DNA of 32,000 bases, taken from NCBI GenBank assembly GCA_021650915.1, contig CP091279.1:1080001-1112000 (forward strand), given 5' to 3'. Positions within the stretch are counted from its first letter, which is position 1. Every line of letters begins with the position of its first letter. Positions 300 through 23,447 of this stretch are shown in pieces. The translations under genes were made by a program, and so were the position numbers. The notes beneath the pieces were generated by a model that was not told where the DNA came from, did not search any database, and saw only the letters and a program-made list of their open reading frames with translations. This DNA is from Candidatus Brocadia sp. GTDB lineage: Bacteria > Planctomycetota > Brocadiia > Brocadiales > Brocadiaceae.

Positions 300-1478
300 A
301 TGTCTGAGTGGAAGGAATATAAATTTTCAGATTTTGTTCATATCAATCCTACCTTAAAGTTGAGTATAGGAGAAACATATTCTTTTGTTGAAATGAAAGA
401 CCTTAGTAACGGTCATAAATTCTGCACTCCGAGCATAGAAAGAAAACTAACAAGCGGTTCAAAATTTCAGGAAGGTGATACATTATTTGCTCGAATAACT
501 CCGTGTTTAGAGAATGGGAAAATATGTCAAGTACGTGGTTTAAAGAATGGTGTAGGTTTTGGCTCAACTGAATTTTTTGTTTTTCGCGGTAAGCATGATG
601 TTTCCGATAATGAATTTGTCTTTTATTTGTCTCGATGGGATGAAGTGCGGTCGTTTGCTGAAATGAATTTTGACGGAACATCTGGACGTCAAAGAGTTCC
701 AAAAGAATCACTTGACAATCTTTTTTTAAAATTACCCCCTCTCTCCGAACAAAAATCCATCGCCTCCATCCTCAGCAGCTTAGATGACAAGATAGACCTG
801 CTGCACCGTCAGAACAAAACCTTAGAGGCATTGGCGGAGACGTTGTTCAGGCAGTGGTTTGTGGAGGAAAATGAATCTTTGGAAATCGCAAAATTAAAAG
901 ACTTTTGTAATCATCTAAAGGCAAATGTCAATCCTTTAAAACAGCCTGACAAAATATTCCATCATTACAGCATACCTGCATTTGATGAAGGACAAGAACC
1001 TGAAATTACTCCAGGAAGAGAAATAAGAAGTAACAAGTATCAAATAAAGGAAGGTACAATTCTGATTTCAAAATTAAACCCTCGCTTCCCTCGTGTATGG
1101 CCGATTCTCGAAAATATCGGAAAAAATCATTCAATCTGTTCTACGGAATTTCAAGTTGTCGAACCAAAAGATTCAAAATACTTTGGATTTATCCTTTGCT
1201 TTCTAAAATCAAAAGCAGTAAAAGATGAATTAATTCAATCAACAAGTGGCACAAGTGGCAGTCATCAAAGAGTTAGTCCTGAAGATATTTTTAACTTAAC
1301 TATTCCTGTTACAAATGACGATAAGTTAAATGAATTCAATCTTATTACTAATCCATATTGGGATAAGATTAAAAATAACAAACGCCAAATCCGCACCCTC
1401 ATCCGTTTACGTGATACGCTCTTGCCCAAGCTGATGAACAGAGAGGTACGGGTTAAAGAGTTGGATTTACTTACTTAG
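300..1478 (+). CDS. hsdS: Type I restriction-modification specificity subunit HsdS
   Basis: 392 aa with two variable TRD halves separated by the classic central conserved region LPPLSEQKSIASILSSLDDKIDLLHRQNKTLEALAETLFRQWFVE. The matching C-terminal conserved helix is IRTLIRLRDTLLPKLMN. Confidence 0.93.
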   Translation: MSEWKEYKFSDFVHINPTLKLSIGETYSFVEMKDLSNGHKFCTPSIERKLTSGSKFQEGDTLFARITPCLENGKICQVRGLKNGVGFGSTEFFVFRGKHDVSDNEFVFYLSRWDEVRSFAEMNFDGTSGRQRVPKESLDNLFLKLPPLSEQKSIASILSSLDDKIDLLHRQNKTLEALAETLFRQWFVEENESLEIAKLKDFCNHLKANVNPLKQPDKIFHHYSIPAFDEGQEPEITPGREIRSNKYQIKEGTILISKLNPRFPRVWPILENIGKNHSICSTEFQVVEPKDSKYFGFILCFLKSKAVKDELIQSTSGTSGSHQRVSPEDIFNLTIPVTNDDKLNEFNLITNPYWDKIKNNKRQIRTLIRLRDTLLPKLMNREVRVKELDLLT

Positions 1479-1522
1479 ATAAAATGCTATGATCTTTTTC
1501 CAGGTAAAGCATTGGAGAAGCT

Positions 1523-4174
1523 ATGACAAACGATAGCAAGACTTACGAAATTTTCAAAAGCGGTAGCGCTTGGATACGTGCGGACTTTCATCTTCATACG
1601 AAGGCAGACAAAGAGTTCAAATATGACGGTAAAGAGAATGAGTTTGTAAATGCTTATGTTCAGCAATTGAGAGATGCTGGAATTTCCATTGGCGCTATTA
1701 CGAATCATAATAAATTTGATCTTGGCGAGTTTAAAGCCCTCAGGACTAAAGCACATAAAGAAGAAATTTTCCTTCTGCCAGGAATCGAGCTTTCAGTAAA
1801 GGATGGTTCAAATGGACTCCACACACTGGTTATTTTTAGTGATGAGTGGGTAATCAATCAAGAGAACACAGACTATATCAATAGTTTTCTGAGTGTGGCT
1901 TTTGCCGGTCAATCGAATTATGAGAATGAAAATGCCCGCACAAATCACGACCTGTTGGAGACCATCCGGGAGCTGGATAAATTCTCCAAGGAGTATTTTC
2001 TGATTTTTGCGCATGTAGAGGCAGATAATGGTTTGTGGGGCGGCTTCTCCGGAGGACGTATTCAGGAATTGGGTGAAAATGATTTATTTAAGCAGCGTAC
2101 CCTGGCATTTCAGAAAGTAATTACTCACGATGTTCCCGACCGTGTCTGTAGAACAAAGGTTCAAAAGTGGCTTGGTAGCTGGTATCCCGCAGAGGTGGAA
2201 GGCTCGGATTGCAAGGCCATTGATCAGATAGGCCAGGGTAAACCTATCTATCTGAAAGTCGGCAGCTTTACTTTTGAGGCAGTCAAGTATGCCTTGCGGG
2301 ATTTTCAAAATCGGGTCTCACAGGAAGTAAAAACATACAAACATTCCTATATCAGAAGTATTTCCTTCATGGGCGGCGTGCTGAATGGGAAAACCGTGCA
2401 TTTATCTCCGGAGCTTAACACCTTTATTGGTATTCGCGGTAGTGGAAAGTCTTCTATCCTTGAAGCGACCCGATATGTGCTGGATATTCATATTGACCAA
2501 AAAGACCCCGACAAGAAGTACAAAGAATCCTTGGTAGCCCATACTTTGGGCAGTGGTGGAAAGGCTATTATTCATGCGGTTGACCGTCATGGGCAGGAGT
2601 ATGAAATTCGCCGTATCCTTAATGAATATCCTGATGTGTATGTCAGGGGGGAAACCCATACCGGAATAAAAATCAGGGAAACTATTCTTCATAAGCCTAT
2701 TTATTTTGGACAAAAGGATCTTTCCAGAAGCGGTGAAGGTTTTGAAAAAGATCTTGTGGAAAAGTTGGTCGGGGAAAAGCTGGTAGATATACGACGCAGG
2801 ATTGAGGAACAGAAACAGCGAGTGCATGAGGTGGTTGATCACTTTCAAAAACTCGCAAATGTTGATGAGCAGAAAAAGGAATACGAAGGAAGGAAACAGG
2901 ACGCAGAATTTCGTTTGAAGATATTCAAGGATCACAGAGTGGAAGAAAAGCTTCAGAGACAGGTTGATTTCGAAGCAGATTCCAGAAAGATCGGACAAAT
3001 TGTTAAATTTATTGAAGGGTATCTTGCCGCATTAACTGAATTCATCAGCCGCTTTGAAGACGATTTTAATAACCTCAAAATTTATAAATCAAATCAGAAT
3101 GCCGTTTTTTTTGAAGTTTTTTTTGCCATCTATGAAAAATTAATTGTGGCATTTAAGGGTCTTAAGCAAAGTCTGGAATCAGGCAAGCTTGCATTGTCCG
3201 AATTGAAAAACAAGGCTAATGAATTTGACGCCCTAAAGAAGGGTCTCAAGGAAGAGTTTGCCGACGTTGAACGGAAGCTTGCTGAGGAACTGAGGATGAG
3301 CGGGGCTCAGTCTGTCCGACCGGATGATTTTATTAAACTTCGCAAGACGGTAGATCAGGCAAAACAGATGCTCGAACTTCTGGAAAAGCAACAGACGCAG
3401 AAAACCACGGTTAGAAATGAGCTTGCCAGGGAGTTATCGGCTTTGAATGAGCTATGGCATGAGGAGTTCAGGGCAATCCAGGCAGAGTTGGGAAAGATTA
3501 ACGTAAATCAACCCGCCTTGACGATTAGGTCAGATTACAAGGGAGAGAAAGAAGCTTTTGTTATATTTATGAAAGATATATTTAAAGGTAGCCGCATTAG
3601 AGAAAATGTCTTCCAGTTGTTGGCAGATACCTTTTCCGATTATGGTGGAATGTACCGCGATTTTGCAAAGGTCGAGACTATTCTTGGAAGTTCTTCAGAA
3701 ACATTTAAGCTGTATTTTAACGAAAACTTGAAAGGTCTGCTAACCTGGCAAGTGCCGAATAAATATACCATAAATTATCATGACAAAGAACTTAAACATC
3801 ACTCTCTTGGACAACGCGCATCTGCATTAATCCTTTTTGTTCTTAGTCAGAAGGAGAATGACGTTATCGTTATTGACCAACCGGAAGATGATCTTGATAA
3901 TCAAACGATTTATGAGGATGTCATCAAATTGATTCGTAGAATGAAATGCGGCACTCAGTTTATATTTGCAACCCACAACGCGAATCTCCCTGTCCTTGGT
4001 GATGCCGAACAGATTCATGCTTGTCGTTACTCTGATGAAAGCATACAACTGAAAACTGGCAGCATTGACAATCAGGACTTGCAAAATGAAATCATTAACA
4101 TCATGGAAGGCGGTGAAGAGGCGTTTCACCGACGCAAGGAGATATATCAACTATGGAACCCACAGAGCTTTTAG
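1523..4174 (+). CDS. PHP-domain phosphoesterase fused to an SMC/RecF-like ABC ATPase with a central coiled coil. This is the R-M-linked family that I recall, from memory only, NCBI naming TrlF-like AAA ATPase.
   Basis: 883 aa. The N-terminal PHP signature is WIRADFHLHTKAD...ITNHNKF...FAHVEADNG. Walker A is GIRGSGKSSILEA. A K/E/Q-rich coiled-coil stretch of ~250 aa follows. The C-terminal signature/Walker B/D-loop is SLGQRASALILFVL...VIVIDQPEDDLD...FIFATHNANLPVLGDAE. A GGAG RBS lies upstream of the ATG. Confidence 0.8.
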   Translation: MTNDSKTYEIFKSGSAWIRADFHLHTKADKEFKYDGKENEFVNAYVQQLRDAGISIGAITNHNKFDLGEFKALRTKAHKEEIFLLPGIELSVKDGSNGLHTLVIFSDEWVINQENTDYINSFLSVAFAGQSNYENENARTNHDLLETIRELDKFSKEYFLIFAHVEADNGLWGGFSGGRIQELGENDLFKQRTLAFQKVITHDVPDRVCRTKVQKWLGSWYPAEVEGSDCKAIDQIGQGKPIYLKVGSFTFEAVKYALRDFQNRVSQEVKTYKHSYIRSISFMGGVLNGKTVHLSPELNTFIGIRGSGKSSILEATRYVLDIHIDQKDPDKKYKESLVAHTLGSGGKAIIHAVDRHGQEYEIRRILNEYPDVYVRGETHTGIKIRETILHKPIYFGQKDLSRSGEGFEKDLVEKLVGEKLVDIRRRIEEQKQRVHEVVDHFQKLANVDEQKKEYEGRKQDAEFRLKIFKDHRVEEKLQRQVDFEADSRKIGQIVKFIEGYLAALTEFISRFEDDFNNLKIYKSNQNAVFFEVFFAIYEKLIVAFKGLKQSLESGKLALSELKNKANEFDALKKGLKEEFADVERKLAEELRMSGAQSVRPDDFIKLRKTVDQAKQMLELLEKQQTQKTTVRNELARELSALNELWHEEFRAIQAELGKINVNQPALTIRSDYKGEKEAFVIFMKDIFKGSRIRENVFQLLADTFSDYGGMYRDFAKVETILGSSSETFKLYFNENLKGLLTWQVPNKYTINYHDKELKHHSLGQRASALILFVLSQKENDVIVIDQPEDDLDNQTIYEDVIKLIRRMKCGTQFIFATHNANLPVLGDAEQIHACRYSDESIQLKTGSIDNQDLQNEIINIMEGGEEAFHRRKEIYQLWNPQSF

Positions 4175-5310
4175 AAATCGTTGGCCGTGACGAAGACAGC
4201 AATAATCAGTTCAAGGCGAATTTTCATAATGTTGACTCGCTGGCTGCTGAAATGGTTGCCTTTAGCAACAGCGGTGGAGGGCGGATTTTTATAGGCATTA
4301 CTAATGACGGGAGAATTACAGGATTAACGCGCCCGGATATGGGGCGGCTTAATCAGCTTGTTTCCAATGCGGCTTCGCAGTCTGTACGCCCTCCTATTAA
4401 TCCCCAGACTGAAAATGTGTCATTACCCGACGGGTTGGTCATGGTGGTTACCATACAGAAGGGTATCAGTAAACCTTATATGGATAATACCGGCGCAATC
4501 TGGGTAAAAAGTGGGTCTGATAAACGCAGGGTAACGTCTCGTGAAGAAATACAGCGGATGTATCAAAACGCGGGTCTTATTCATGGAGACGAAGTCCCTG
4601 CAAATGGAATGACTATAGGCGATCTGGATATGGATTATTTCCGGAGCTTTTTTAAGAAGCAGTATGGTGAATCTCTTGAGGAACAGAATTTGCCATTGAA
4701 TACCATTCTTGAAAATATGAATCTTCTGAAGGATGGTGTTCTGAAAGTTGCCGGTGCGCTGCTGTTTGCCAGAAGACAGGAATTTTACCTGCCTGCCTTT
4801 TGTGTTAAGTGTGTGACATATCCGGGAGATGATATCCATGCTTCAGAATACCGGGATAGCGAAGATATTACCGGCAAACTGGAGGAAGTATTCAACCGTT
4901 CGCTCGGTTTTATTACCAGAAACTTACGCCATATTCAGTATGACCAGAATGTGAACTCACCTGGTAGACTTGAAATTCCGAAAATCACCCTTGAGGAACT
5001 GCTAACAAATGCTTTGGTGCACCGTGATTATTTCGTTCTTGCGCCAGTTCGCATTTTCATCTTTAACAATCGCATTGAAATAATCAGTCCGGGGCATCTG
5101 CCAAATAACCTAACTATAGAGAATATCAAGAAAGGGAACTCGAATATCAGAAACCCAATCCTGACATCATTTGCAACGAAAATTCTGCCTTATCGTGGTT
5201 TAGGAAATGGTATTAGAAGGGCGATAAAGGAGTATAGTGACATCGAATTTGAAGATGACCAAGCGGGAAATGCCTTTAGGGTTATCATTCGCAGGTCATC
5301 TGATAAGTAG
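4153..5310 (+). CDS. AlbA_2 (Schlafen-like) domain plus HATPase_c_4 domain protein (COG2865-type putative nucleic-acid-binding protein that lacks the usual C-terminal HTH)
   Basis: 385 aa. The AlbA_2-type N-terminus is EDSNNQFKANFHN..LAAEMVAFSNSGGGRIFIGITNDG. The HATPase_c_4-type motif is EELLTNALVHRDY...IEIISPG. Its start overlaps the preceding gene by 22 nt, consistent with one operon. Confidence 0.75.
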   Translation: MEPTELLEIVGRDEDSNNQFKANFHNVDSLAAEMVAFSNSGGGRIFIGITNDGRITGLTRPDMGRLNQLVSNAASQSVRPPINPQTENVSLPDGLVMVVTIQKGISKPYMDNTGAIWVKSGSDKRRVTSREEIQRMYQNAGLIHGDEVPANGMTIGDLDMDYFRSFFKKQYGESLEEQNLPLNTILENMNLLKDGVLKVAGALLFARRQEFYLPAFCVKCVTYPGDDIHASEYRDSEDITGKLEEVFNRSLGFITRNLRHIQYDQNVNSPGRLEIPKITLEELLTNALVHRDYFVLAPVRIFIFNNRIEIISPGHLPNNLTIENIKKGNSNIRNPILTSFATKILPYRGLGNGIRRAIKEYSDIEFEDDQAGNAFRVIIRRSSDK

Positions 5311-5369
5311 GTTTTAAGTGTGGAAGATTCAACTATTCGAAAAATTTGAATAGTTCAAATGGTGAAGGA

Positions 5370-5930
5370 ATTGGTTTATAGTATTACTCCATAAAAACTT
5401 CTTTTTTCTGTAATGTTTTCTTTGTGATCTTTGTATAAAACTTTGCGTTCTTTGTGGTTGAACTTTTTTGGTTGCAACTGTGCTGCGTTATAATATTACT
5501 GTGTAAAAGCTTCTTTTTTTTGTAAGTTTTTTCACAAACCCCTTTCAGGAGGTACCGTTTTTTTATGAGTGAAAGATTGCTTCGCTTCACTCGCAATGAC
5601 AACATGCAGTGTACCATCAAAGTGCATGGTCGCTGTCATTGCGAGGGGCCTTTTCCGAAGCAATCTCCCCGCTTTCACAATGGAGAATTGGTTGCGGCCT
5701 TGCTGCGCTATAGTATTACTGTATAAAAACTTCTTTTTTCTGTGAGTTTTTTCACAAACCCCTTTCAGGAAGTACCGTTTTTTTATGAGTGAAAGATTGC
5801 TTCGCTTCACTCGCAATGACAACATGCAGTGTACCATCAAAATGCATGGCCGGTGTCATTGCGAGGGCCTTTTCCGAAGCAATCTCCCCGCTTTCATAAA
5901 GGAAATTTGGTTGCGGCTGTGCCGCGCTAT
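5370..5930 (+). repeat. Tandem array of a ~220-bp hairpin-containing repeat (MITE/REP-like): one truncated unit plus two full units
   Basis: Full units are at 5470-5689 and 5690-5908, each bounded by the ~22-bp motif GGTTGCGGCTGTGCCGCGCTAT (last copy 5909-5930). A truncated unit at ~5370-5469 shares TATAGTATTACT..AAAAACTTCTTTTTTCTGT. Each full unit carries the long imperfect inverted repeat AGATTGCTTCGCTTCACTCGCAATGACA...TGTCATTGCGAGGGCCTTTTCCGAAGCAATCT (5574-5666 and 5794-5885). Confidence 0.9.
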
Positions 5931-5971
5931 GATATGCAGATGTAATAATTCTAAAAGACAGGAGGTGTAAA

Positions 5972-6202
5972 ATGTTGTCAGTTAAAGGTACTTATAAGGA
6001 TGGAAAGGTGATTATTCAACAGGAGATAAAAACTGAAAAACCGATTAATGTGATAGTCACTTTTTTGGAAGAGGTAAAGACGCCTGGTGTAAGAAGACTT
6101 GACATAAACAAGTTCTCATTCAAAAAGGCAAGGAAGTTGTTGGAAGGTTATAAAGGGTCGTTAAGTGATGCGATCATAGAAGAGCGCAGGAGCGCTGTAT
6201 GA
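5972..6202 (+). CDS. Putative type II antitoxin (VapB-position partner of the downstream PIN gene)
   Basis: 76 aa. A GGAGG RBS lies 7 nt upstream. The short beta-strand-type N-terminus is MLSVKGTYKDGKVIIQQEI. The stop overlaps the PIN gene start in ATGA at 6199-6202. Confidence 0.6.
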   Translation: MLSVKGTYKDGKVIIQQEIKTEKPINVIVTFLEEVKTPGVRRLDINKFSFKKARKLLEGYKGSLSDAIIEERRSAV

Positions 6203-6624
6203 AGACTTTTCTGGATACTTCTTCTCTCATTAAGCTTTATCATCAGGAAGAAGGGGCTGATTTTGTAATGGATGCCCTTTCCAACGATATCGAAGAAATA
6301 CTCCTCTCAGAGCTTGCCGTTTTGGAATTCCGTTCTGCCTTATGGAAGAAGATAAGGGAAAAGGAGATAGAGGAGAAGGTAGCCATCGAAGTTATTCAAT
6401 GTTTCCAAAAAGACAGGGATAACTTCCAATGAATATTGTTGCAATCTGATATTGTCGAATCGGCTTCGTACTTACTGATGAAATACGGCAACCGTGGTTT
6501 AAGAACGTTAGATTCCCTGCAATTAGCAACAGCATTAACTTTGAGGGAAGAGAAATGTATTTTTTTTACCTCCGATAAGTTATTGCGGACTTTGTTTGCA
6601 GAAGAACAGCTTAAAGTTTTATAA
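6199..6624 (+). pseudogene. vapC: PIN-domain (VapC-type) toxin gene interrupted by one in-frame TGA at 6430-6432
   Basis: The N-terminal part is MKTFLDTSSLIKLYHQEEG, with the typical PIN acidic D5. The C-terminal part is LRTLDSLQLATAL...FFTSDKLL, carrying the conserved D. ORFs 6199-6432 and 6436-6624 are in the same frame and separated only by TGA. Confidence 0.7.
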
Positions 6625-6638
6625 AGGTTCGCTGTACG

Positions 6639-9600
6639 TTGAGCAAAATTACCGAAAGCGATATTGAACAATATACCATTGAGGAATTAAAAACCCTGGG
6701 CTTTCAGTTCCTTCACGGGCCAGATATTGCTCCCGATGGTGAGTTTCCCGAACGGCAGGCTTATAGTGACATTGTTTTGGTGGGCAGGCTTAGGGCTGCC
6801 ATTCAAAGGCTTAATCCAAACATCCCTGCGGGTGCCAGGGAACAGGCACTTCGTGAAGTGCAGCGTATAAATTCACCTGAATTGCTTACCAATAATGAGT
6901 CATTTCACCATTTCCTTACCGATGGTGTTCCAGTTACTTATCGTTCTCCTCTCCCTCTGGGAGAGGTTGGGAGAGGGTCTGATGAAAAATCAGATTACGT
7001 CTGGCTCATCGATTTTAACAATCCTCTCAACAATGAATTTCTGATGGTCAATCAGTACACGGTCATTGAGAACAACCAGAACAAACGGCCTGATATTTTA
7101 CTCTTTGTCAATGGCATTCCCTTAGTGCTGATTGAATTAAAAAATCCAGCAGATGAAAATGCTACCATCAAAAAGGCCTTTGACCAGATACAAACCTACA
7201 AGGCGACTATTCCAAGTCTTTTTACCTTCAACGCCTTTTGTGTTATTTCTGATGGTCACGAATGCAAGGCTGGCAGCACTTCGGCGGGTTACAATCGTTT
7301 TATGGCATGGAAGCTTGCAAACGGCAAAAAAGAGGTTTCAAAGTTTGTACCGGAGTTAGAAATCCTCATACAAGGGATGCTAAATCCCATCACCTTATTA
7401 GACCTTGTTCGCAACTTCATCGTATTTGAAAAATCTATTTCTACGAAACCCTCACCCTTACATCCCTCTCCCAGTGGGAGAGGGAACGCGGGAGAGGGTT
7501 CTGTCTTACAGATTGAAACGGTGAAGAAGGTGGCAGCCTATCATCAATATTATGCGGTCAATAAGGCTATCGAAAGTACCCTGCGGGCGGCAGGGTACTT
7601 TCAACCCTCCCTCAGTCCCTCCCAAAAGGAGGGAATCAATGCCTCTCCCTTTGTGAGAGATACAAGAGAGGGTGTTTGTAGAGAGAGTCATTATAGAGGT
7701 GGTTTGGTGTTTTCCGGGTTACTCAATAAGGCAAAAGAGTTAAGAAAAAAACAAACTCCGGCGGAAGAAGTGTTTTGGCAATTAGTGCGCGACAAAAAAT
7801 TCTTTGGTCTAAAATTCCGAAGACAACACCAGATTGGACCTTACATTGTTGACTTTTACTGCCACGAACATAAACTGATTGTTGAATTAGATGGAGAAAT
7901 TCATCAAATAGAAGGACAGCAAAAACATGATACAACGAAGGATAAATATCTTACCTCATTAGGAAACAAAGTTATTCGTTTCGCCAATAATGAGATTTTA
8001 ACCCAAACAGATAAAACCCTTGAAAAAATAGCCAATCTCCTCTCCCTTTGGGAGAGGTCGGGAGAGGGTAACGTAGGCAATAAAAAAGCAGGAGTTATTT
8101 GGCATACACAGGGTTCTGGGAAAAGCCTGAGCATGGTGTTTTATGCGGGCAAACTGATTACATCCGAGGCGATGCAAAATCCCACTATTGTTGTTATCAC
8201 TGACCGTAATGACCTGGATGACCAGTTGTTTGACACCTTTGCATCTTCAAAACAGTTGTTGAGGCAAGAGCCGGTGCAGGCAAGAGACAGGGAGGATTTG
8301 AAAGACCTGTTGAAAGTGGCTTCCGGCGGCATTGTGTTCACTACTATTCAAAAGTTTTTACCAGAAGCAGGTAAGGCAGCATACGATCGGCTTTCTGACA
8401 GGGACAACATCGTTGTTATAGCGGATGAAGCCCACAGAACCCAATATGGCTTTGAGGCAAAGTTGCATGACGAAAGAGACAAGGACACCAAAGAGGTCAT
8501 TGGAAAACGCATAGCCTACGGCTTTGCCAAGTATATGAGAGATGCCTTACCCAATGCGACTTACATTGGTTTTACCGGCACACCCATTGAAAGCACAGAC
8601 GTAAACACCCCGGCAGTATTTGGGCAGTATGTTGACATATACGATATTTCACAATCAGTCGCCGATGGCGCCACCGTTAAGATTTATTACGAAAGCCGTC
8701 TGGCAAAGGTCAATCTGGATGAAGAAGGCAGACGGTTGATTGAGGAGTTTGATAAAGAGCTTGAAGAAGATGAGGAAATAACCGACAAGCAAAGGGCTAA
8801 AGCCAAGTGGACAAAGCTTGAGGCCATTGTAGGCAATCAGGAAAGGATAAAAAACCTGGCCAGGGATATTGTTACTCATTTTGAGCAGCGTCAAGCGGTA
8901 TTTGATGGTAAGGCTATGATTGTAGCGATGAGTCGCAGGATTGCAGTTGACCTCTACAATGAGATCATCAAGTTAAGACCGGAGTGGTATAATGACGACC
9001 TGACCAAGGGCGTAATCAAAGTTATTATGACTGCATCCAGTGCCGATGGCCCTGTTATGCAGAAGCAGCACACCACGAAAACACAACGCAAGGCTTTATC
9101 TGATAGAATGAAAGACCCGGCAGACCCCTTGAAACTGGTTGTTGTTCGGGATATGTGGCTTACGGGTTTTGATGCGCCTTGTTTGCATACGCTTTATGTA
9201 GATAAACCCATGAGAGGTCACAATCTGATGCAAGCCATAGCACGGGTAAACAGGATATTCAAAGACAAACCCGGTGGTTTAGTGGTGGATTATTTAGGCA
9301 TTGCAACTGACCTCAAAAAGGCATTGGCCTTCTATGCCGATTCAGGGGGAAAAGGCGATCCGGCAGAGAGCCAGGAAAAGGCCGTTGAGATGTTTATTGA
9401 AAAATTGGAGGTAGTACGCCAACTCTTCCTTGAAGAAAGCAAAACAAAAGAAGTTATCCTTGCCGCAGAACCTACCGCTTATTATGGCAACTATCCGGGA
9501 ACAGGCTTTAATTACAAGCGTTTCTTTTCAGCGTCACCCAAAGAAAAACTTTCGATCATCTTGCAGGCAGAGGAACATATTTTGGGTCTGGCAGATGGTA

Positions 9601-10214
9601 AGAACCGTTTTATCAATGAGGTAACATTGCTTAGTAAGGCTTTTGCCTTGTCCATACCTCACGAAAAAGCATTGGCGGTAAAAGATGAAGTTGCATTCTT
9701 TCAGGCTGTAAAGGCACGGCTTGTAAAGTTTATAAGCGACGGCACAGGCAGGTCAGATATAGATATCGAGACGGCCATAAAGCAGATAATCGACGAGGCA
9801 TTGAGTTCAGACCAGGTTGTAGATATTTTTGATGCAGCAGGTATAAAAAAGCCTGAGATATCCATTTTGTCTGAGGAATTTTTGTTAGAGATACAGGGAA
9901 TGAAGCATCAGAACCTTGCCCTTGAATTGTTGAAGCGAATCCTCAATGACGAAATCAGAAGCCGTTCAAAAACTAACCTGGTGAGAAGTAAGGCATTGCT
10001 TGAAATGCTTGAGACCACCATCAAAAAGTATCAGAACAATTTGCTTTCAGCCGCCGAAATTATTCAGAAATTGATTGAGTTAGCCAGAGAGATCAAGACA
10101 GAAGACCGAAGAGGTGTAAAACTTGGTTTGTCCGAAGATGAATTGGCTTTCTACGATGCGTTGGAGACGAACAACAGTGCAGTTCAGGTTTTAGGTGATG
10201 AACGGCTCAGATTG
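6639..10214 (+). CDS. hsdR: Type I restriction endonuclease subunit HsdR, 5' exon. It carries in-frame insertions and is interrupted by a group II intron; the exon end is approximate.
   Basis: TTG start. The N-terminus is [24 protein letters not shown]. The nuclease-core region is [20 protein letters not shown]. Helicase motifs are [13 protein letters not shown] (I), [13 protein letters not shown] (II), IGFTGTP (III) and QAIARVNR (VI). HsdR homology ends at ...[24 protein letters not shown], and the ORF then runs 9 more codons into the intron to a TGA at 10239-10241. Confidence 0.9.
6948..6978 (+). repeat. 31-nt palindromic mini-element, copy 1, in frame inside hsdR
   Basis: Sequence CCTCTCCCTCTGGGAGAGGTTGGGAGAGGGT, translated as [12 protein letters not shown]. 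It interrupts the conserved ...PVTYR / ...YVWLIDF N-terminal region. Confidence 0.85.
7464..7499 (+). repeat. 36-nt palindromic mini-element, copy 2, in frame inside hsdR
   Basis: Sequence CCCTCTCCCAGTGGGAGAGGGAACGCGGGAGAGGGT, translated as [13 protein letters not shown]. It contains a perfect 9-bp hairpin, CCCTCTCCC/GGGAGAGGG. Confidence 0.85.
7642..7673 (+). repeat. Degenerate copy 3 of the palindromic mini-element, at the left edge of the DUF559 module
   Basis: Sequence CCTCTCCCTTTGTGAGAGATACAAGAGAGGGT. It has the same ends as the other copies, but the G-rich arms are decayed. Confidence 0.6.
7731..8035 (+). other. DUF559 (Vsr-like/restriction-endonuclease-fold) domain encoded in frame inside hsdR
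   Basis: [59 protein letters not shown]...[19 protein letters not shown] matches the DUF559 pattern (R..T.aE..LW..Lr...f.RQ..ig.yivDF.c....l.iElDG..H). It sits between the conserved [13 protein letters not shown] segment and helicase motif I. Confidence 0.8.
8039..8069 (+). repeat. 31-nt palindromic mini-element, copy 4, at the right edge of the DUF559 module
   Basis: Sequence CCTCTCCCTTTGGGAGAGGTCGGGAGAGGGT, translated as [12 protein letters not shown]. Confidence 0.85.
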
Positions 10215-12214
10215 GCGTGCCTTGAAGTATGGGATACCTGAGTGGTTGAAAATATCACCTCTGCGAGCCTAAATCCTCGTAGAGAAGTTTGTACCTATGC
10301 GTATACAAAGGAGCAATCCGTGTGCGTAGAAGGATAGCGTATTCCCGTGAGGGGTATGACGGAGTTACGAGGTACAGACGACCTTTTGGGGTGTATGAAT
10401 ATGGCGTGTTAGTTCGTGCCAACTGCCCTTTCTCAGTAAAGCACTGACAAATGTCCTTGTTGGAGATGATGCAAGCGATTCGGTGAAAACATCTCTGGAT
10501 AATGCGTTTGAACATACATCACGAAGGGAAAAGGGGTAATCCATATGACCGGGGGAGGACTTACGTCTTGGGAAGAAATTCCCTAACAGCGAGGTATAAG
10601 GGAAATCCGAAATCCAAGCTGTATGAGATGGTGACGGACGACTGGCTCTCACAGGTCTGTCTTTGAAGTCGTCAGCAGTGCTCATAATAGTTTCTGGTGT
10701 AAGCCGGAAATGAAGGGGCATAACCGTAGTGGAGTTGATGAAAGTGGTAGATTGAATACGTTCCATGAGAAAAGAGACTCTTTGCATGGGCAAGTAGTAG
10801 CAAGAGCCTCTCTTGTTTTGCCTCTGTCAGGAGGAATCTCGACTCAGGAAACACGATTGACAAGTCTATTATCCGGAATCAATCAAAAGGAACATATCGG
10901 GAGATGCTTAAGTATCATTCTTTAAGAGACAAGGTATTCAGTCTGAGAAACCTTTATGCGGCTTTTGGGCACGTAAAGAAGAATAAAGGCAAGGCTGGTC
11001 TCGACAGGGTAAGTATTAAGCAGTTTGAAAGTGACCTTGAGAATAATCTACAAGCTATTCACAAGGAACTGAAAACCGCCATATACAACCCTGCGCCCGT
11101 CTTAAGGGTCTACATTCCCAAAGGCAGGCATGACAAGAGACCTCTTGGCATTCCCATTGTCAAGGACAGGGTAGTACAGCAGGCGTTCAGACAAATCATA
11201 GAGCCAATATTCGAGAAAGAATTCTCGGATAACAGCTTTGGATTTCGTCCAAACAGATGCTGTCATGATGCTATCAAACGGATTGAACAGTATAAGCAGC
11301 AAGGGTATCGGAACATTTTGGACGCCGATATAAAGGCGTTCTATGACACCATACCTCACAAGCTTATCATGAACTCCTTGCGTGAGAAAATCGCTGACGG
11401 ATGGGTGTTGAACAGTATCGAGAACATGCTCAAGGCAGGGGTCATGGAGAACGGCATCGTGCACGAGACAAATCAAGGCACTCCGCAAGGAGGCGTCATA
11501 TCCCCCTTGCTTGCAAACCTTATCGGTGACATCATCGACAAGGAGCTTGAAAAGGCAGGATATAAATTTGTCCGCTATGCCGATGACTTCATTGTCATGA
11601 CTAAAACAAAAGAAGAACTCCCTACCGCCCTTCAGTACGTCAAAGAAATCATCGAAGGGAAACTTGAAATGAAGCTGAGCGAGGATAAAACCAGGCTCAC
11701 CAACTTCAAACGAGGCTTCCGGTTTCTCGGATATAATTTCATGGGCAAGAACAAGGGTGTAAGCATGAAATCCCTGGACAAACTCAAGGACGCCGTTAGA
11801 GACATCACCAAACGCACACAAGGCGTCAACCTGCAAGCCGTCATTGATACATTAAATCCTGTCATAAGGGGACATGTCAACTATTTTCGGCTGGGCAATG
11901 TACAAACGGTATATCGCTCGTTAGACTGCTGGGTACGCATGAGACTGAGAAGTTTCAAGTTTTCGAGAAAATGGAAAACTGACAACAAACGTTTCCCGGT
12001 ACACCGATTCTTTAAGATGGGGTTACTCTCATTTGAAAGAGAATTTCTTAAGGCACGTGCGAAGGCATGATAGTTTACTTTTCTCTGCTCCAGAGCAACA
12101 CTATGGGGTCGCTAACTACGGGAAAGCCGTATGGTTTAAAAGGATACTTTGTCACGTTGTCCAAAGTATCTGGCGACGATTGGGGGTTGGAGGCGGTTCG
12201 CCTCCTTCCTACCA
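10215..12214 (+). mobile_element. Group II intron (~2.0 kb) inserted in the 3' part of hsdR; boundaries are good to about +/-6 nt
   Basis: An RT/maturase ORF lies inside it. HsdR homology stops at ~10211-10217 and resumes at ~12213-12218. About 690 nt of structured non-coding sequence precede the ORF. The 3' end is GGAGGCGGTTCGCCTCCTTCCTAC (a hairpin followed by a ..AC end). The 5' end reads GCGTGCC rather than a clean GTGYG. Confidence 0.75.
10904..12070 (+). CDS. Group II intron reverse transcriptase/maturase (no endonuclease domain)
   Basis: 388 aa. Motifs are RPLGIPIVKDRVVQQA (RT2), FGFRPNR (RT3), DADIKAFYDTIPH (RT4), GTPQGGVISPLLANL (RT4-5) and VRYADDFIV (RT5 YADD). The X/maturase region is LNPVIRGHVNYFRLGN. 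Confidence 0.95.
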   Translation: MLKYHSLRDKVFSLRNLYAAFGHVKKNKGKAGLDRVSIKQFESDLENNLQAIHKELKTAIYNPAPVLRVYIPKGRHDKRPLGIPIVKDRVVQQAFRQIIEPIFEKEFSDNSFGFRPNRCCHDAIKRIEQYKQQGYRNILDADIKAFYDTIPHKLIMNSLREKIADGWVLNSIENMLKAGVMENGIVHETNQGTPQGGVISPLLANLIGDIIDKELEKAGYKFVRYADDFIVMTKTKEELPTALQYVKEIIEGKLEMKLSEDKTRLTNFKRGFRFLGYNFMGKNKGVSMKSLDKLKDAVRDITKRTQGVNLQAVIDTLNPVIRGHVNYFRLGNVQTVYRSLDCWVRMRLRSFKFSRKWKTDNKRFPVHRFFKMGLLSFEREFLKARAKA

Positions 12215-12424
12215 GCTATTGCACGGGAAATTGCGGAGAAGGTAAAGGCCAATGCAACGATAGATTGGACTATTCGGGAAAGTGCCAGGGCAAAGCTGAT
12301 GGTACTGGTAAGAAGAACTTTAAACAAATACGGGTATCCACCAGACAAGCAGCAAAAGGCAATTGACACCGTTTTGAAACAAGCAGAGGTACTGGCGGAT
12401 TACGTTGTTCGAGTCAAAGGATAA
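12215..12424 (+). CDS. hsdR: hsdR 3' exon (conserved HsdR C-terminal region); start approximate
   Basis: [63 protein letters not shown] is the conserved type I R-subunit C-terminus that normally follows ..LGDE.L... In-frame junctions exist, for example 10214|12215. Confidence 0.85.
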
Positions 12425-21427: not shown

Positions 21428-21940
21428 AATTAAGTATGGTGTCCGTACGCAGTAACATTTGTTTATTCTTACGGGTTAAAGTCCCGTCCGGGGAATTATC
21501 CGTTCACCCCGGTAGTTCAAGGGAGCGGCGTCTGAGCAATCAGGGGTCGTAAGTTCCCAATTGGCAAAACCGCAGGCCGCAGCGCAAGCGAACCTACAAG
21601 TAGCCTCGTCAATACAAATTGAAGATGCCGACCCCGTGGACACGTGGGGAAGGCCGAAGATTGCAGACTCAGGCAACGGAAGGAGTCTGTAATATCTTCC
21701 GGGGTAGCAGGGGCGGTATGCAGTGGAAGATAAACAGACCAGTGCTGGAGACCCTATGCAGTAATGTTTGAGGGGCATAAACCGCTCTGTATAAGGAAAC
21801 GAAATCACAGCGGGCTGTATAGGGAGTCGGAGGGGTTCATGATACCGTTTGAGGACAAGGGACAACAAAACCCTGTTCGAGGAAAGGAACCCTGCTTTGT
21901 TCATGCAACCGAAGAGTAGAGGAAAAGGGAGATTGCAGAA

Positions 21941-23257
21941 ATGCTAACAACCCCGGAAAAGATCAGGATACTACAGAGGAAGCTATACCGAAAGGCCAAG
22001 CAAGAACCAACCTACCGCTTCTACGCCCTCTATGACAAGGTATTCCGGGCAGACATCCTCAGTCATGCTTACACCCTTGTCCGTGCCAACAAAGGGAGCG
22101 CCGGGATAGACGGCGTAACCTTCGAGGCCATCGAGGAAAGAGAAGGGGTATCCGCCTTTCTGGCGGAACTGCAAGAAGCACTCAGGAGCAAGACCTATCA
22201 AGCAAGCCCTGTAAAACGAGTAATGATACCCAAGACGGACGGAACGGAACGCCCGTTAGGCATTCCCACCATCCGTGACAGGGTAGCGCAGATGGCCGTA
22301 AAACTGGTCATAGAACCCATTTTTGAAGCCGATTTCTGCGAATGTTCATACGGGTTCAGGCCGAAGAAATCTGCCCACGATGCCGTAGATGACGTAGCAT
22401 ATACCCTCAACAAGGGATATACCGAAATCATAGACGCCGACCTGTCCAAATACTTTGACACCATCCCCCATGCCAAGCTTATGGCTGTGGTAGCAGAGCG
22501 CATCAGTGACGGTGAGATACTGCACCTGATAAAGACGTGGCTCAAGGCTCCGGTCATAGAAAAAGGCAGAGACGGAAAACAAAGGAACATCGGCGGAGGT
22601 AAAGGGAACCGGAAAGGCACACCTCAAGGAGGAGTAATCTCACCGTTACTAGCCAATCTCTACCTGCACCTCCTGGACAGGATATGGGAGAGACATCGAC
22701 TGGAGAAGAAACTCGGAGCCAGATTAGTACGCTTTGCCGATGACTTTGTCGTACTGTGCAGGCAAGGAACTGAACAGCCAATGGCGATAACAAAGCGGGT
22801 GCTGGACAAACTGGGACTGACGTTAAACGAGGCAAAGAGCCGTGTAGTAGACGCCATGAAAGAGGGATTTACCTTTCTTGGGTTTGAACTTCAAAAGAGG
22901 AAGAATTGGCGCACGGGGAAGAGTTATCCCCATGTTCAGCCGTCGAAGAAATCTCTCAAGAAGATAAAAGACCACATTACGGCACTTACCAGCAGGAACA
23001 GGTCCCCTCTACCGTTTGAAGCGATAGTCAAAGAGGTGAATACGGCACTGATAGGATGGACAGGATACTTCCATTATCGCAATTGCAGCAGAGTCCTCAA
23101 GCAAGTAAGAGAACACGCTCAATTCCGGCTTCGGATACACCTGTACAGACGTCATAAAATCAGAGACAGGAAGACAGGGCTTAAGCGATACACAAACAGC
23201 ATGTTATATGAGAGATATGGTCTTTACAAAGTGCCGACCACAGCGGTATGGAGATAG
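21941..23257 (+). CDS. Group II intron reverse transcriptase/maturase (no En domain)
   Basis: 438 aa. Motifs are RPLGIPTIRDRVAQMA, YGFRPKKSAHDA, DADLSKYFDTIPH, GTPQGGVISPLLANLYL and VRFADDFVV (FADD variant). The maturase X region is ALIGWTGYFHYRN. Confidence 0.95.
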   Translation: MLTTPEKIRILQRKLYRKAKQEPTYRFYALYDKVFRADILSHAYTLVRANKGSAGIDGVTFEAIEEREGVSAFLAELQEALRSKTYQASPVKRVMIPKTDGTERPLGIPTIRDRVAQMAVKLVIEPIFEADFCECSYGFRPKKSAHDAVDDVAYTLNKGYTEIIDADLSKYFDTIPHAKLMAVVAERISDGEILHLIKTWLKAPVIEKGRDGKQRNIGGGKGNRKGTPQGGVISPLLANLYLHLLDRIWERHRLEKKLGARLVRFADDFVVLCRQGTEQPMAITKRVLDKLGLTLNEAKSRVVDAMKEGFTFLGFELQKRKNWRTGKSYPHVQPSKKSLKKIKDHITALTSRNRSPLPFEAIVKEVNTALIGWTGYFHYRNCSRVLKQVREHAQFRLRIHLYRRHKIRDRKTGLKRYTNSMLYERYGLYKVPTTAVWR

Positions 23258-23285
23258 CGCATGCCTTATGGTGAAGGGCATCGGA

Positions 23286-23318
23286 AAGCCGTGTGCGGGA
23301 AAACCGCAAGCACGGTTT
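23286..23318 (+). ncRNA. Group II intron domain V (catalytic hairpin) of intron 2
   Basis: AAGCCGUGU-GCGG-GAAAA-CCGC-AA-GCACGGUUU. It has a 9-bp lower stem with the AGC triad, a 2-nt AA bulge, a 4-bp upper stem and a GAAA-type loop. I paired it by hand. Confidence 0.85.
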
Positions 23319-23447
23319 GATGAGGGAGGACTGGCGAAATAGCATGGTGAGGCTACTGAGGCACTGCCAGACGAAAGGGGCAGAAACAGATAGGCCAACC
23401 TAAACTATAGATAGCCAGTTCCCTACTCTACCCGAAATTGCCATGAG

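Follow-up and report, generated by a model that had tools for sequence, protein, structure and literature searches.

Repeats of the TMECO type follow the consensus CCCTCNCCC N3-6 GGGNGAGGG N3 GGGNGAGGG, and "BoxC structures" are mentioned in the same work (Holder et al. 2015, PMC4666352). That study counted 3610 TMECO copies in 262 proteobacterial genomes, reported that E. coli units form an intrastrand triplex in vitro, and found that TMECO sites mark unstable loci in E. coli, where local rearrangements are concentrated (PMC4666352). The genes flanking these sites have no consensus function, and neither "endonuclease" nor "DUF559" occurs in the text (PMC4666352). A precedent for a nuclease fold that drives gene mobility is provided by the Vsr-like EDxHD homing endonucleases (I-Bth0305I, PMC3239194; Dassa et al. 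2009, PMC2677866). Here we analyze a segment inserted into hsdR, the gene for a restriction subunit, in a stretch of 32,000 nucleotides from Candidatus Brocadia sp. (GenBank assembly GCA_021650915.1, contig CP091279.1, positions 1,080,001 to 1,112,000), hereafter the window. The segment holds a DUF559 nuclease domain between two inverted TMECO/BoxC-like units (TM units). We think that it is probably a selfish in-frame nuclease cassette with TM units as its terminal inverted repeats, and that solo TM units are derivatives of the cassette or its landing sites.

The window units resemble the published repeats in their fit to the consensus, and the published ones also occur as inverted pairs and at unstable loci. 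The published repeats, however, are intergenic, are found mainly in Proteobacteria and Cyanobacteria and have no gene or function attached, whereas the window units lie inside coding sequence, are translated, and flank DUF559 as terminal inverted repeats. Likeness to the EDxHD enzymes covers the Vsr-fold catalytic domain, with similar acidic and histidine residues and a Foldseek match to I-Bth0305I (PDB 3R3P), as well as the occupation of one site in homologous genes, where close alleles may have or lack the insert. Inserts that stand alone, outside any intron or intein, have also been noted in the EDxHD family. The cassette differs in that its open reading frame (ORF) is fused in-frame to the host, with no intron, intein or separate gene. 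It also lacks a NUMOD or helix-turn-helix (HTH) region, uses many insertion sites, has conserved terminal inverted repeats, and resembles DUF559/YcjD (PDB 3HRL) in sequence as opposed to the EDxHD group. Within the DUF559/YcjD family (PF04480, 3HRL, E. coli YcjD) the module is a full-length member, although annotations usually describe the family as small, free-standing proteins of unassigned function and here it is an internal module of HsdR. Transposons of the miniature inverted-repeat transposable element type also have terminal inverted repeats, with full-length and internally deleted forms at equivalent sites, but the cassette has no transposase of a known class.

Two further systems can be compared. 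In the REP/RAYT system (REPINs), short repetitive extragenic palindromes (REPs) are scattered, the RAYT gene is flanked by inverted REPs, and RAYTs are HUH/Y1 enzymes. A palindromic repeat and a flanked nuclease-type gene are common to both, but the cassette encodes a PD-(D/E)XK enzyme and its units lie inside genes. Rickettsia palindromic elements are in-frame palindromes that add peptide loops, encode no enzyme and are confined to Rickettsia; unlike them, the cassette carries a full enzyme domain and spans many phyla. The literature that we searched, with incomplete coverage, contained no paper tying DUF559 to TM/BoxC repeats or to HsdR. The HsdR-DUF559 architecture is already visible in databases through names given by the Joint Genome Institute (JGI), and the repeat is published (PMC4666352); in the literature searched we found neither the DUF559-TM link nor the anatomy of the cassette.

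The inserted segment and its ends

The insert lies just ahead of helicase motif I, and its limits (Table 1) were read from the closest insert-free hsdR allele, L001, which is ~90% identical to the window gene over the entire gene. When the window HsdR was aligned with its 120 best database relatives, the interval from AIESTLRA to the next conserved segment measured 167 residues in the window, 147-230 in 49 others, and exactly 9 in 70. Differences between L001 and the window concentrate at both junctions (TLRA-AG and KKA-GVI versus TIEA-SG and KKG-GVV). In an alignment with the EcoR124I HsdR, window residues 266 and 482 face EcoR124I residues 266 and 300, a segment that we take to join the nuclease domain to helicase domain 1. 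A full-length AlphaFold model of HsdR was too poor to place domains (mean pLDDT, the predicted local distance difference test, 57; predicted template modeling score, pTM, 0.31), although in it the DUF559 core folds independently and the repeat peptides have low confidence.

The domain matches PF04480 with an E value of 6e-36 and 123 bits against a cut-off of 20.6, over profile positions 5-108 of 109. The score with the NCBIfam equivalog PRK09767, 76 bits, is under that model's cut-off of 218, so the module is not a YcjD equivalog. Its nearest solved structure is PDB 3HRL (E 7e-29), and Foldseek gave template modeling scores of 0.88 for 3HRL, 0.72 for the homing endonuclease I-Bth0305I (3R3P) and 0.5 for Vsr. 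AlphaFold2 (AF2) predicts the DUF559 core with a pLDDT of 85-96 and the flanking repeat peptides as disordered, and by AF2 and Pfam the folded part is the ~115-residue catalytic core alone, with no separate NUMOD/HTH DNA-binding region found by either. Searches of the insert with Pfam, NCBIfam and PADLOC found DUF559 only and no transposase of a known class (DDE, HUH, serine or tyrosine). Residues D88, E99, D101, H105 and D114 of the insert (HsdR 405, 416, 418, 422 and 431) are invariant in 20 modules, and the dN/dS ratio (nonsynonymous to synonymous substitution rates) of the nuclease, 0.07-0.18, is similar to that of the host. As judged from sequence, the module is a predicted nuclease with a complete catalytic set under purifying selection. 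The only PADLOC match, to DpdF (E 5e-5), was weak and is not meaningful.

Each TM unit is made up of a C/T arm, a loop of 3-4 nt, a G/A arm and a second G/A arm, here called the outer arm. A unit of ~31 nt stands at either end of the insert with its outer arm directed away from the DUF559 gene, and the two are inverted copies over 28 nt with 75% complementarity (pair I1). A third, degenerate unit is nested between the left repeat and the domain. It was considered as the left boundary and dropped. The unit at 7604-7634 pairs with the one at 8039-8069, and L002 has no 7642 copy; DNA alignment places the nested unit in the nearest relative as well (L003/L004).

An earlier note on this DNA, made from its letters alone, had anticipated much of this anatomy. 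Its estimate of about 160 extra codons before motif I compares with 158 net, or 167 residues against 9 in the 70 insert-free homologues; the complete DUF559 domain it named is found by the profile search, and the catalytic residues whose retention it raised are all five present and invariant. It had proposed an in-frame invasion without an intein, which agrees with our failure to find a Hint domain with Pfam or an intron with Rfam. Its small hairpin at 7616-7634 exists and belongs to the left terminal repeat. As for the flanking elements, the intact unit at 8039 does border the module, but the left partner is the inverted unit at 7604-7634, not the degenerate copy that the note had chosen.

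At the left junction a hairpin of 13 bp and 100% complementarity spans host and inserted DNA (z -7 together with the hairpin of the terminal repeat). Host/filler hairpins of other sequence occur at the same junction in L005 (GAGAGTA.../...TACTCTC) and L006 (GAAAACCCTA/TAGGGTTTTC), and since these differ in sequence, the inserted filler mirrors whichever host flank is there. The junction hairpin could be left over from a step involving a hairpin or fold-back, or it could be a structure under selection.

The ends of the insert pair with each other and each forms a hairpin, which could bring them together in RNA, and one could imagine that the insert is removed after transcription or translation in the manner of an intron or intein, leaving a mature HsdR without it. 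We give this explanation almost no credence. Pfam found no Hint/intein domain in HsdR, and the junction residues, Gly/Tyr and Val/Gly, include no intein nucleophiles. Rfam reported no family of any kind in 7400-8250 at gathering score, and at E<1 only weak hairpin-type matches at chance level. Dozens of lineages keep the reading frame open across the insert, although splicing would make this unnecessary, and the ORF nearly fills the 480 nt. We noted sub-threshold matches to whalefall-1 (RF01762) at 7604-7637, 7448-7486 and 8036-8069, with 15-20 bits against a gathering score of 37. The whalefall-1 consensus is a CU-rich hairpin followed by AGGGUGAGG, and this Rfam family may have been built on a relative of the TM repeat.

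Repeat units in hsdR and around DUF559 genes

The pattern CCTCTCCCnnnGGGAGAGG has four copies in the 32-kb window, all within hsdR, versus 0 expected by chance. Units with 8-nt arms at 8039-8069, 6945-6978 and 7463-7499, together with the reversed unit at 7604-7634, match the published TMECO/BoxC consensus. Besides the two ends of the insert, hsdR holds two solo units, one in an N-domain loop (site 'e') and one that is double-armed and translated in place of the loop KKEDPKTGIT (site 'd'); the latter folds with -19 kcal/mol and z -5.2. Within this one gene, TM units are translated in all three reading frames.

For a wider view, a profile of the modules was scanned against one genome per species, the matches were extended to the flanking stop codons and their hosts were clustered, which gave 80 loci. 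Perfect pyrimidine/purine hairpins occur at 0.73 per kb in the host ORFs versus 0.08 per kb outside (9x) and cluster at most 30 nt from the DUF559 core on both sides. Across the 80 loci, the outer arm is 5' in hairpins upstream of the core (36 vs 7) and 3' in those downstream (35 vs 3; Fisher p 2e-12), while solo units show both orientations about evenly (30 vs 27). About 55 left and right ends from many phyla fit one consensus of ~35 nt, CCCCTCTCCC nnn GGGAGAGGGG nn GGGGGTGAGGGT, with module termini A/CCCTC and GAGGG/T, and the right end is translated in all three frames among homologues. Between the window and its nearest relative, the repeat regions have 0 and 1 synonymous differences, small numbers, against a synonymous divergence (dS) of 0.3-0.5 elsewhere. 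Free-standing DUF559 copies carry the same ends. Taken together, these nucleotide comparisons indicate that the repeat is a DNA-level element and not merely a protein linker.

Sites that hold solo units in the window hold whole modules in other genomes. Loop 'e' is occupied by a full DUF559 module in L057 and by repeat-only units in L052 and L071, and the host junctions of the full module in L057 are identical to those of the repeat-only, double-armed unit in L071/L052. At loop 'd', full modules are found in L007, L008, L011, L014, L016 and L032. Full and repeat-only forms at matching sites are the pattern of a putative autonomous element with short derivatives. In E. coli K-12, the 3' end of ycjD, a gene annotated as DUF559, falls within a degenerate TM unit whose loop contains the stop codon; TMECO no. 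9 follows ~170 nt downstream. We also observed that this K-12 region (L084, NC_000913.3 1351040-1351830) reads, in order, ycjD, a partial duplicate of the ycjD 3' end, and then the complete TMECO no. 9.

The abundance of solo units could be explained in another way, with the TM/BoxC repeats as the active party, either recombination-prone or moved by another enzyme, and DUF559 as trapped cargo whose activity is irrelevant to spread. Solo units greatly outnumber cassettes, E. coli K-12 has 23 TM units against a single DUF559 gene (ycjD being the only one checked), and in E. coli local rearrangements concentrate at TM sites (PMC4666352). In addition, the hairpin portion of one end recurs in direct orientation at the other, so slippage between the two could delete or capture the interior. 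Arbitrary cargo, however, would put other genes between inverted TM units, and here the interior is always DUF559, in all the phyla and host genes sampled; a passenger would also not account for the purifying selection on the nuclease and its invariant catalytic residues. We regard trapped cargo as unlikely.

Distribution among alleles, host genes and phyla

The 80 loci span Planctomycetota, Verrucomicrobiota, Acidobacteriota, Cyanobacteria, Bacteroidota, Nitrospirota, Elusimicrobia, archaeal Methanophagales and others, and some 65 related modules in these loci, from many phyla, share one layout: a TM unit, DUF559 and an inverted TM unit. Modules lie within long ORFs in 66 of 82 cases (35 HsdR-like loci, 23 HsdM-like, 5 HsdS-like and 3 large methylases), and two HsdR genes hold two modules each. 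In HsdR there are at least four insertion sites: before motif I, before the DEAH box, in the FIVFEK/IKKLAAYHQ interval, and in two N-domain loops. An all-against-library search with the window module matched 24,352 cluster representatives at 50% identity. Among the best 139 matches, 55 are at least 300 aa long, chiefly HsdS, HsdM, HsdR and methylases, and the other hosts include RecG, SpoU methylase, a class I tRNA synthetase, and Eco57I-type and type ISP enzymes. The module is in-frame inside RecG and the SpoU rRNA methylase and stands at the start of the class I aminoacyl-tRNA synthetase fragment, and one protein of 377 aa has three tandem DUF559 domains. The module has thus changed host gene and site repeatedly. 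Close relatives of the window module were seen in P0241, P0335, P0344 and P0345, whose hosts are the tandem-DUF559 protein, RecG, the SpoU rRNA methylase and the class I aminoacyl-tRNA synthetase.

The predominance of restriction-modification hosts raises the question of whether DUF559 is a domesticated accessory domain, a second nuclease or regulatory module of restriction-modification complexes, with the repeat peptides as flexible linkers and the distribution reflecting the shuffling of a useful domain. Most close relatives are indeed housed in HsdR, HsdM or HsdS, which belong to a single complex, or in further restriction-modification enzymes. Most host genes keep an intact reading frame, the catalytic residues are invariant with a low dN/dS, and Vsr-like effectors are fused to helicases in other defence systems (PMC11090510). 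Nevertheless, linkers need no inverted palindromic DNA read in three frames, free-standing copies share the same ends, and the same cassette is found in RecG, a SpoU methylase and a tRNA synthetase. The cassette is also present in the L003 hsdR, which is possibly broken, and very close alleles function without it. Domestication as the whole explanation is unlikely in our view. Both it and the trapped-cargo explanation are compatible with a selfish in-frame cassette.

Comparison of alleles bears on how the insert came to its present distribution. At the motif-I site, 50 of the top 120 HsdR matches have an insert; they come from many phyla, the insert always has flanking repeats, and its distribution is patchy and does not follow clades. 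The window HsdR and P0002 each sit among insert-free proteins when a tree is built from the C-terminal part of the host. The host dS to the window is 0.34 and 0.38 for the insert-free L001 and 0.38 and 0.48 for the insert-bearing L003, while the module dS between the window and L003 is 0.29. Since L001 is closer than L003, the module moved between alleles or was exactly removed, which implies recombination either way. The window and L002 form a mosaic, with a dS of ~2.1 for the module, 1.3 for the host N-part and 0.65 for the host C-part. In a tree of the DUF559 core, modules from R, M, S and free-standing genes are mixed together, and P0114 has another DUF559 lineage (36% identity), with other repeat peptides, in the same HsdR loop. 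Vertical inheritance with precise losses was considered and rejected, as it would need repeated exact restoration of the ancestral 9-residue loop. The hsdR of L003/L004, from a Planctomycetota metagenome-assembled genome (MAG; GCA_023261465.1), has the same three inserted elements as the window and is called as three ORFs of 201, 280 and 781 aa; frameshifts may have broken the gene, or the assembly may be at fault.

The same data speak to the view that this is an ordinary old architecture, a single ancient HsdR fusion inherited vertically with occasional loss and with incidental repeats. An insert at the same site in 50 of 120 top matches from several phyla would fit it, as would the host tree, where insert-bearing proteins mostly group and just 3 changes are needed, and JGI names such proteins "R subunit/very-short-patch-repair endonuclease". 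It is largely refuted, and we consider it very improbable: the window and P0002 fall inside an insert-free clade, the closest allele is without the insert and keeps the ancestral 9-residue loop, other sites and host genes are used, a second DUF559 lineage sits at the same loop, and conserved inverted repeats are always present.

These results also bear on the evolutionary claims of the earlier note. The comparison with insert-free orthologues that it suggested was informative in that the closest allele has no insert. The note had allowed that the fusion might prove ancient and widespread without flanking repeats; it is widespread (50/120), but repeats are always present and the distribution is patchy. 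Its idea that the cassette was carried in by the repeat is replaced by one that fits better, where the repeats are the terminal inverted repeats of the cassette and the solo units are derivatives or landing pads. We would also not call the insertion very recent, since the insert is common to the window and the MAG at a dS of ~0.29.

If the insert is a selfish cassette, as we favor, it would consist of a small DUF559 (YcjD family) gene without its own start or stop codon, between two inverted TMECO/BoxC units. It would land in surface loops of other genes or be copied into them, with restriction-modification genes as the chief hosts, and would survive only where the entire unit remains in frame, with the nuclease made as part of the host protein and the repeat DNA translated into disordered Pro/Gly-rich linkers. 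Solo TM units would be internal-deletion derivatives of the cassette or its landing sites. As the most likely mechanism, we hypothesize that the nuclease cuts at or near TM units and that repair then copies the cassette from a template that carries it, with homology supplied by the ~35-nt TM units; this would amount to homing with the repeat itself as the target. Where donor and recipient are alleles of one gene, ordinary homologous recombination through the flanks would have the same effect.

Several points weigh against this interpretation. No movement has been observed, and we know of no PD-(D/E)XK nuclease that can perform strand transfer alone. No target-site duplication is evident among 21 modules, with one empty-site comparison. 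The trees were built by neighbour joining from short alignments and have no support values. The HsdR genes are themselves mosaic, with N and C parts of different histories, so ordinary recombination alone could yield a patchy pattern. The bias towards restriction-modification genes (66/82) could mean that the domain is useful, not selfish, and is in part due to the HsdR-borne query. Finally, Holder et al. did not see a stable triplex in vivo (PMC4666352).

Beyond the cassette itself, we speculate that DUF559/YcjD nucleases are the missing protein partner of BoxC/TM repeats, and that the two together make up a mobile element of a new class, present across bacteria and in some archaea. Such an element would have triplex- or hairpin-forming ends and, as its sole gene, a Vsr-fold nuclease translated within the host protein. 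It would spread by repeat-targeted cleavage and copy-repair, its short derivatives would be the instability-causing BoxC/TM repeats, and the palindrome at 7572-7602, like its counterparts of other sequence in L005 and L006, would be the trace of hairpin formation or fold-back. We offer this larger proposal tentatively and think it has a minority chance of being right.

BoxC/TM repeats are catalogued in hundreds of genomes with no gene or function assigned to them in PMC4666352, and DUF559 is a very large family of unassigned function; their physical link gives a testable hypothesis for both. If the cassette is what we propose, a selfish nuclease gene can live inside other genes without an intron or intein, as a tolerated, translated loop domain. 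Many "HsdR/HsdM/HsdS-DUF559 fusions" and Pro/Gly-rich insertions would then be mobile DNA and not designed architecture, and restriction-modification genes would be a preferred home of the cassette.

Setting of hsdR in the window

The ORF that carries the insert scores 598 bits with TIGR00348 (hsdR; NCBIfam) and contains the Pfam domains HSDR_N, SWI2_SNF2/ResIII, T1R_D3-like and T1RH-like_C in addition to DUF559.

Table 1. Coordinates of the hsdR reading frame, the insert and the TM units, as positions in the window
Feature	Position	Strand	Description and basis
hsdR reading frame	6639..10241	+	Exon 1 and read-through into a group II intron-like segment; Pfam, TIGR00348, tblastn
Solo TM/BoxC unit	6945..6978	+	Pyrimidine (Y) arm 6948-6955, purine (R) arm 6959-6966, second R arm 6969-6978; N-domain loop 'e', translated
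Double-armed solo TM unit	7448..7499	+	Outer arm ACCCTCACCC 7448-7457, hairpin 7463-7485, outer arm GGGAGAGGGT 7490-7499
Junction hairpin	7572..7602	+	Host codons GAAAGTACCCTGC pair with the first 13 inserted nt GCAGGGTACTTTC; pair I19
Whole inserted segment	7596..8075	+	DNA alignment with L001: 480 nt replacing 6 nt, net 158 codons
Left terminal inverted repeat	7604..7634	+	Reversed TM unit; outer arm ACCCTCCCTC 7604-7613, hairpin 7616-7634
Extra degenerate TM unit	7642..7673	+	2 mismatches; nested between left repeat and DUF559 domain
DUF559 (YcjD-like, Vsr-fold) domain	7725..8042	+	Pfam; aa 363-468 of HsdR
Right terminal inverted repeat	8039..8069	+	Y arm 8039-8046, R arm 8050-8057, outer arm GGGAGAGGGT 8060-8069; translated

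Homology to intact HsdR stops at ~10208 and restarts at 12218 (tblastn with the C-terminus of P0003). Near its 3' end, hsdR is split by a group II intron-like segment at 10209-12217, which encloses a reverse transcriptase (RT)/maturase ORF (RVT_1 and GIIM) at 10904-12070, and HsdR homology is back at 12218-12412; Rfam at gathering score made no call on this copy. A second group II intron occupies 21478-23431, with Rfam matches to group-II-D1D4-6 (21478-21714) and Intron_gpII (23284-23431) and an RT/maturase ORF at 21941-23257.

Several genes separate hsdR from hsdS (300-1478, Methylase_S) across positions 300-6630, and no hsdM was found in the 32-kb window. Between hsdS and hsdR lie an AAA_21/SMC-like ATPase (1523-4174) and a Schlafen/AlbA_2 protein (4153-5310). 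Small ORFs at 5972-6624 are guessed, from peptide reading alone, to be an antitoxin and a split PIN-type toxin. Two overlapping ORFs on the minus strand at 5384-5840 open with nearly identical 24 residues (MMVHCMLSLRVKRSNLSLIKKRY), which suggests that the intergenic stretch contains a direct repeat of ~150 nt.

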